Below, one piece after another: positions 34,440-34,977 of a stretch of DNA of 64,000 nt. The position numbers and the translations under genes were made by a program. The DNA is taken from the NCBI GenBank assembly GCA_964016885.1, contig OZ024752.1:36704001-36768000 (forward strand), given 5' to 3'. Source of the DNA: Eledone cirrhosa (Eukaryota). The notes beneath the pieces are model-generated. The model saw only the letters and a program-made list of their open reading frames with translations. It did not search any database and had not been told where the DNA came from. Positions within the stretch are counted from its first letter, which is position 1. The number at the start of each line of letters is the position of its first letter.

Positions 34440-34759
34440 GTATATACCGTATTTCCCGGCGCCGAAGATGCTTCGTCTTCGTGGATGCACCCTAATTTTG
34501 ACAACCAAAAATTTGAAAAATAAATAATAAACAACCTTCGGCCTCCAGGACGCATAGTAGATTTTTTAGACTTATTTTAGGAATTTGAAAATTAGGTAGT
34601 AACATGTGCTTACGCCGTATTTGAGTAAATAGAATTAGTCTGTTGGGATTTTTAAAAATCCTCTGAAATGGAAAAAAGGATGAGTATTAATGTACATGGA
34701 AGACAAACCCACATCTTTATACCTGCTGTGGTTACATAGCTTCTAGTTGAAGCATGGGT

Positions 34760-34830
34760 GGCGTGTTGGTGTAATGGTAACACATTGGTCCGGCAAACCA
34801 AAGATGTGGGTTCGTGTCCCATGTACGTCA
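34760..34830 (+). pseudogene. tRNA-like cloverleaf inside a family G element
   Basis: Acceptor GGCGTGT/GTACGTC-A, D arm GTGT-AATGGTA-ACAC, anticodon arm TTGGT-CCGGCAA-ACCAA, T arm GTGGG-TTCGTGT-CCCAT. Confidence 0.7.
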
Positions 34831-34977
34831 ATACTCATCCTTTTTTTCCATCCAGAGAGTTTTTTAAAATCCCAACTAACAGACTAATTCTATTTAGTCA
34901 AATACGGCGTAAGCACATGGTACTACATAATTTATATATATCTATCCATATATATATATATATATCCATATATATAT

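Follow-up and report, generated by a model that had tools for sequence, protein, structure and literature searches.

A short repeat that carries a tRNA-like cloverleaf, here called family G, occurs four times within 64,000 nucleotides of the Eledone cirrhosa genome (contig OZ024752.1, positions 36,704,001 to 36,768,000; this whole stretch is referred to as the window). The window is 34% GC and rich in (TA)n, the genome measures 3.0 Gb, and the copies of G raise the question of which machinery moves them and what their tRNA-like part contributes. An earlier note on this DNA took G for a Pol III SINE mobilised by Penelope-like element (PLE) machinery and regarded this as an unusual partnership.

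Blast and arm mapping recovered all four copies, each with the two inverted arms that had been described (Table 1). The cloverleaf of the copy at 34582-34933, hereafter the 34585 copy, matches the Rfam tRNA model with 55 bits (E 4e-9) and is called at the same place by ARAGORN, so the earlier identification stands. A second cloverleaf that had been reported on the minus strand is a cloverleaf remnant, but it is 5'-truncated, lacks the 5' acceptor strand and yields no ARAGORN call. The copies at 18950 and 52820 fold near the tRNA acceptor and T arm as had been claimed for all four, whereas those at 56995 and 34585 fold in the anticodon/variable region. Adjacency to (TA)n likewise applies to the right side of the 34585 copy, but the left arm stops short where it meets a truncated MITE. 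A tail of roughly 150 bp agrees with the family, in which it measures about 135-152 nt, but not with the 34585 copy, whose tail of ~103 nt ends at the proximal site. Two features of this copy had been overlooked, namely the leader, whose last ~20 nt pair with the trailer and which has lost ~9 nt of that strand here, and the T7 run. Contigs from four DNA runs of one study, possibly the assembly's own sample, contain the G family and inverted contigs; positions 34712-34735 are uncovered in them, which is uninformative either way.

Table 1. Coordinates of the G copies, their parts and other repeats in the window.
Feature	Position	Strand	Remarks
G copy, subfamily G1 (34585 copy)	34582-34933		two inverted arms; blast and arm mapping
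tRNA-like cloverleaf, subfamily G1	34760-34830	+	A box intact; B box without A58; D arm closest to tRNA-Gln
Family leader	34718-34759	+	42 nt; in tandem copies, continuation of the preceding unit's tail
Trailer with T7 run (34841-34847)	34831-34853	+	3' strand of leader-trailer helix; potential Pol III terminator
Tail with two conserved hairpins	34854-34933	+	ends at proximal 3' site
Second, head-to-head arm	34582-34718	-	variable loop/T arm through tail; ~10 nt beyond proximal site, then cut
(TA)n-type target array	34933-35014		right side of the 34585 copy
Truncated TIR MITE	34444-34583		abuts the left arm; outside G
G2a copy	18950-19168		minus arm to proximal site, plus arm to distal site; fold at T-stem/acceptor junction
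G2a copy	52821-53069		distal end on minus arm, proximal end on plus arm; flanked left and right by (TA)n; fold at T-stem/acceptor junction
G2b copy	56995-57318		distal end on minus arm, which reaches into D arm (57127-57190); proximal end on plus arm; flanked left and right by (TA)n
Another short family with inverted arms	3681-3786, 6613-6798, 9813-10024, 48745-48916, 52515-52707, 54002-54175, 56646-56851		
Whole TIR MITE copies	3967-4120, 31669-31946		
Ordinary SINE arrays	17713-18550, 46755-47060		head-to-tail; 5'-truncated units; period 130-142
U6 chimera	28878-29010	-	5'-truncated U6 snRNA copy; (TA)n on both sides

Several other repeats share the window. The TIR MITE is ~150-170 bp long, and its copy at 31669 holds an inserted piece of SINE. 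The U6 copy (88.5 bits in Rfam) is a chimera in which a retroposon-like 3' tail of ~60 nt is fused after the U6 T-run. Another short family follows the same pattern as G, with one of its inverted arms stopping early in (TA)n and the other running on.

Exact matches across the genome number 4,753 for a 17-mer at the tRNA 3' end (0 for the reversed control), 970 for a D-arm 20-mer, and 2,084 and 2,283 for tail 22-23-mers; G is a short mobile repeat with thousands of copies. The loci that we fetched form three subfamilies, G1 (unit 286 nt), G2a (271 nt) and G2b (260 nt), and the 34585 copy belongs to G1, whose members are ~12% apart. The unit of 260-286 nt is closed and consists of leader, tRNA-like cloverleaf and tail, joined head-to-tail, with 243 exact matches to a 24-mer that spans the tail-leader junction. 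There is no TA spacer at the G2 joint, and the joint is therefore element sequence and not the product of two insertions in one microsatellite. The earlier note had allowed that the tRNA-like part might be only an internal segment of a longer pseudo-LTR. It is internal, but its host unit is short, closed, pseudo-LTR-like and non-coding: none of 60 loci picked by leader or junction led to anything but G or to an ORF (55 gave an automatic G match, four were G units with a damaged D arm and one was a fold-back). At one locus (L114, the same as L042 and L222) the G cloverleaf is fused at the B box to the body of another SINE. Real tRNA-Gln genes occur in clusters on C1 and as a 277-nt tandem array on C9 (L142-L162); the latter, with its 277-nt spacing, was considered as a G multimer and rejected.

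Where the sequence begins relative to the tRNA was followed in 99 D-arm occurrences, a set to which some loci contribute both arms and in which a few loci are near-duplicates. Eighteen stop within -8 to +5 of the tRNA start, 21 end in a leader of 48-53 nt, and 60 continue into the tail of the preceding unit as partial head-to-tail tandems of the pseudo-LTR type, with 9 traversing the whole unit. The tRNA is thus not a 5'-terminal head, as 81 of the 99 reach more than 8 nt upstream of it.

The 3' side was examined through 138 distinct ends from 96 loci, after overlapping loci and one locus running off an edge had been dropped. A proximal site accounts for 72 of these ends, a distal site ~35-55 nt further on for 57, and other positions for 9, so that 129 of 138 use two sites, and G has no tail repeat of its own. 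When a locus holds both orientations, it usually (35 of 40) has one distal and one proximal end. Neighbouring pairs among the 200 tail matches listed were head-to-head in 41 cases, tail-to-tail in 0 and direct, at 221-272 nt, in 4. As control we used the genome's ordinary tRNA SINE, which we take to be Nin/Deu-like, and the fractions that the earlier note had proposed to measure differ clearly: (TA)n directly follows 115 of 138 G ends vs 3 of 45 SINE ends (13-15% of random positions lie next to (TA)n), and an inverted partner, sought within 500 bp of G loci picked by the 17-mer alone, was found at 50 of 75 loci vs 2 of 45 SINE anchors, both at one locus. The absence of poly-A and TSDs was confirmed, with a non-microsatellite direct flank repeat of at least 8 nt at only 2 of 51 head-to-head loci.

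This genome's autonomous PLEs, with RT plus a GIY-YIG domain at the C terminus, served as positive control. Four of their families have two 3' ends each, 29 of 31 terminal ends run into (TA)n (first scored as 31 of 33, from which two tandem continuations were removed), and all 4 same-family inverted pairs combine one distal with one proximal end. Published descriptions of PLEs mention partial tandems, an inverted 5'-truncated copy, a tail of 30-40 bp often at one end, and a bias to microsatellites (PMC8557442), and in vitro work describes two internal RT start sites and the cutting and extension of both target strands (PMC11167929). In its two ends, its (TA)n target, its head-to-head arms and its lack of a clear TSD, the insertion signature of G matches that of PLEs. 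Mobilisation by PLE machinery, as the earlier note had it, is well supported by this signature and both controls, but a SINE in the usual sense is not, given the internal tRNA and the T5-T6 runs. The partnership is less unusual than had been stated, since the Sm-alpha repeat is described as tRNA-Gln-derived with a hammerhead (PMC2770079) and hammerhead repeats are proposed passengers of PLEs.

A classical Pol III SINE would carry a 5' tRNA head, be transcribed from the tRNA to past the tail and be moved by a LINE or a PLE. Its unit size would suit G, as would the A box found in all subfamilies, the consensus B box of G2 and the 18 D-arm copies that stop at the tRNA start; we nevertheless hold this reading to be highly improbable, because 81 copies extend upstream of the tRNA, 60 of them into the previous tail, T5-T6 stands ahead of the tail, and the two 3' ends, the lack of an own tail repeat and the lack of a TSD are all traits that the genome's ordinary SINE does not share. 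The LINE version in particular appears largely refuted; G shows neither a tail repeat nor a TSD, and the LINE sequences compared were the window's own LINE pieces. Movement at the DNA level, as a MITE-like foldback or a microsatellite-associated repeat that owes its spread to a transposase, to replication slippage or to gene conversion, can be considered extremely improbable. The copies do resemble inverted-repeat elements flanked by TA, and a MITE adjoins the 34585 copy, but the inner arm ends are variable, the two fixed outer ends differ, 25 of 75 loci have no inverted partner, RNA structure is strand-specific (sense z -1.5 to -2.7, antisense -1.6 to +0.6), 5' truncations follow the tRNA fold, and autonomous PLEs show the same pattern.

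The copies had been described as snap-back palindromes, but the arms of the 34585 copy are more than plain snap-back copies of one another: the right arm has the leader and the D arm, which are absent from the left, and the left arm reaches ~10 nt deeper into the tail. Among 43 distal/proximal pairs, of which two or three palindromic centres were mis-scored, the proximal arm is longer at the 5' side in 23, the distal arm in 14, and both are equal in 6. A longer proximal arm cannot arise from a single distal cDNA that folds back, and two cDNAs joined at microhomologies fit better; the pairs thus favour two-strand target priming over simple snap-back, and later deletions at palindrome centres could also produce the asymmetry. 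Both arms come from one source. At polymorphic sites of G2b, the arms are concordant at 199 and discordant at 13, where 90 discordant sites would be expected if they were independent; a two-source origin is thereby rejected for G2, and G1 is too diverged to tell.

The cloverleaf is the best kept part of the unit. Its pairs are retained at 21 of 21 positions in G1 and 20 of 21 in G2, and identity between G1 and G2 is 86-88% in the tRNA part vs 66-69% in tail and leader. Compared with the genome's tRNA-Gln, the G cloverleaf is identical at 43-48 of 72 positions with a near match in the D arm, but overall identity does not single out Gln, as another tRNA-like family reaches 46-47 of 72, with few isotypes compared. 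Gln is a candidate ancestor only, and nine pairs would have changed on both sides if it were the true one. The anticodon loop varies among subfamilies, and G has neither the constant anticodon nor the canonical loops of a functional tRNA gene. A genome-wide tRNA search yielded 16 matches, 10 of which represent one dispersed family (L283, L285-L293) with a near-intact internal tRNA of 53-72 bits and a variable anticodon. In that family, presumably Helitron/HINE-like, the tRNA lies ~310 nt from a 5' end that has a short subterminal hairpin.

In all three subfamilies a predicted helix of 18-20 bp, formed by the leader end and the trailer, prolongs the acceptor stem past a 3-nt bulge. Its strands are 14 and 12 nt long in G1 (in 25 and 16, respectively, of 30 copies) vs 12 and 10 nt in G2 (70 and 68 of 77), so both are 2 nt shorter in G2, a paired difference which argues that a single RNA contains leader and tRNA. 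When the predicted structure is applied to 17 real copies, pairing holds in 89% of cells vs 37-54% in slid controls, the structure having been derived from the same sequences. Two-sided covariation within the family is scarce, and apparent two-sided changes of the leader-trailer helix in the 17 copies were traced to gap placement and not counted. In the folds of lowest energy the D and anticodon arms are rearranged, and the cloverleaf lies 3-6 kcal/mol higher.

Truncation points relate to this fold. The 5' ends of 89 arms lie at positions 60-64 in 45 cases, 52-57 in 9, 19-44 in 4, -8 to 18 in 12, and further upstream in 19; the T arm therefore accounts for 54 of 89, a peak inflated by CATG/AT microhomology, by the counting of both palindrome arms and by an anchor that hides ends 3' of position 64. 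Stops are concentrated in the T arm and the D arm, as if reverse transcriptase had halted at the tRNA elbow. A pile-up at the tRNA start, which had looked 2.5-fold, was considered as an RNA 5' end and rejected, since it is no denser (6 of 25 at risk) than the D arm (6 of 31).

The earlier note had stated that G lacks a ribozyme, and this holds for the hammerhead core: a relaxed scan for the core with stem II found none on the sense strand of any G subfamily and did find cores in other families of the window. Rfam returned only the tRNA on G; because it likewise missed the hammerhead-like window motif of a sister family, its blank is weak and was not used as evidence. In autonomous Neptune-type PLE families (L062-L110), a hammerhead-like motif that is degenerate and has a palindromic stem lies ~100-190 nt upstream of the 3' ends. 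It could be argued that G is a decayed hammerhead retrozyme, either Sm-alpha-like or a PLE pseudo-LTR that acquired a tRNA gene; the tRNA would now merely be carried along, and the cutting would be done, today or formerly, by a ribozyme that is degenerate or has escaped recognition. The tail has a hairpin and, after it, an A-run, located ~25-30 nt ahead of the proximal end and, by eye, near the position of stem II and GAAA in the sisters; this would fit, as would the degenerate motifs of the local PLEs and the blindness of Rfam to the window's own motif. We judge it very improbable, as the relaxed scan found no core on any sense strand and the tRNA is the most conserved part between subfamilies, which is unexpected for a passenger that stalls RT.

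We therefore consider it quite likely that G is a high-copy, hammerhead-free, tRNA-bearing passenger of Penelope-like elements, that is, a non-autonomous PLE copied in trans. At the level of sequence G has a closed unit, two fixed 3' ends, a (TA)n target, head-to-head arms of one source, and a conserved cloverleaf and predicted helix. The most likely helper is a GIY-YIG PLE of Neptune/Nematis type that nicks (TA)n. These autonomous elements share with G the target, the two 3' ends and head-to-head arms with one end of each kind; unlike G they are protein-coding and several kb long. A search for the G tail at the 3' ends of autonomous elements, suggested in the earlier note, gave no blastn match to G in 50 PLE loci (of 10,596 first-look GIY-YIG candidates). 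The G1 distal end resembles the proximal end of one autonomous PLE family (L077, L080, L110) over 11 nt plus a TA-like spacer of low complexity, a weak candidate lead to the partner.

Under this passenger reading, the PLE protein would start reverse transcription at two internal sites of the G RNA, one for each target strand. Most cDNAs would stall in the folded tRNA elbow, and short microhomologies would serve to join them head-to-head. Any cDNA that gets past the tRNA would continue into leader and preceding tail, the template presumably being multimeric, circular or terminally redundant. The RNA would be arranged like a pseudo-LTR or retrozyme repeat, with the tRNA upstream of the priming sites, in the place that the hammerhead takes in sister families.

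A tRNA stall costs ~60% of cDNAs, and the module should therefore pay for itself. One tentative option, and a possible one, is that it provides the unit with an internal Pol III promoter, transcription leaking through the T-run, as in Cassandra, which is described as transcribed from one repeat into the next (PMC10886601). A promoter is favoured by the A box, which is intact in all subfamilies, and by G2, which is younger than G1, matches the consensus in its B box and has fewer T-runs. Against Pol III stand the potential inner terminator that every subfamily has 10 nt after the tRNA (+81; T6 and a second T6 in G1, T5 in G2a and G2b) and the G1 B box without A58. A PLE passenger driven by Pol III in analogy to Cassandra is, taken as a whole, somewhat unlikely. 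A fold that stabilises or exports a read-through Pol II RNA is conceivable although doubtful.

A cut site for a host tRNA nuclease in place of the ribozyme is rather unlikely. For such a handle speak the retention of all stems, beyond what a promoter needs, and the position of the module upstream of the priming sites, like that of the hammerhead. Pairing between leader and trailer is reported to inhibit RNase P if no bulge takes in base -1 (PMC9705548). In G this base is predicted to be paired, and there is no distinct end peak at +1; both speak against an RNase P cut. We regard as unlikely the fuller proposal that G is a ribozyme-free analogue of a retrozyme, a tRNA mimic having replaced the hammerhead in a PLE passenger. 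Host tRNA-processing enzymes would then cut read-through RNA at each cloverleaf, the leader-trailer helix would keep the new 3' end beside the tRNA 5' end so that ligation or RT template jumping could follow, and insertion of the product would fall to a Neptune-type PLE that primes on both target strands.

Among known systems, metazoan hammerhead repeats have been described as tandem units of 170-400 nt (PMC7229834) and have been interpreted as read-through transcripts that PLEs mobilise (PMC7761336; bioRxiv 10.64898/2026.07.22.740005); the accessible text of the latter does not contain the word 'tRNA'. Non-LTR retrozymes and MRC1-type Chlamys elements (PMC7229834; PMC8557442), as described there, resemble G in their non-coding head-to-tail units, in pseudo-LTR-like partial tandems and in PLE machinery, proposed or shown by structure. 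They differ in their type I hammerhead, which is absent in G, whereas G has an internal cloverleaf and leader-trailer helix and occurs mostly in dispersed form, as monomers to trimers within (TA)n. The closest precedents are Sm-alpha and Cassandra/Helenus. The Sm-alpha repeat of Schistosoma mansoni, compared here by its description, belongs to the class of hammerhead repeats and is like G short and high-copy with a tRNA part, but keeps its hammerhead. Cassandra, Helenus and Ajax (TRIMp3; PMC10886601) also place a small-RNA-derived sequence in the terminal repeat of a non-autonomous element. According to that account they have a PBS, a PPT, TSDs of 4-5 bp and dependence on LTR retrotransposons, whereas G shows the PLE signature; it has no TSD and no fixed two-LTR structure, its 5' truncation is variable, and it retains all tRNA stems and not just the boxes. 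The tRNA-derived SINE of this genome shares A and B boxes, shortness, high copy number and a non-coding nature with G, but has a 5' head and a single 3' end into an ATT-like tail and is rarely inverted or in (TA)n. The annotation of Octopus vulgaris reports 190 PLE families and many unclassified SINEs, and no such element in the parts available (PMC13282606). Our literature search found no description of a hammerhead-free, tRNA-bearing PLE passenger; it covered papers, and G may already be listed in Repbase or Dfam as an unclassified SINE. G works like a non-LTR retrozyme and lacks the hammerhead that defines one; it also lacks the 5' head of a SINE and has a potential inner terminator.

In PLE transposition the hammerhead is reported to be dispensable in vitro (PMC11167929). 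As a natural, high-copy swap of a tRNA fold for the hammerhead, G could help to probe what that position does. Its thousands of short insertions record details of the reaction, including the distal and proximal ends of each inverted pair and the single source of both arms. For annotation, families of this kind will be filed as SINEs or tRNA pseudogenes, and a tRNA-like part does not imply dependence on a LINE.
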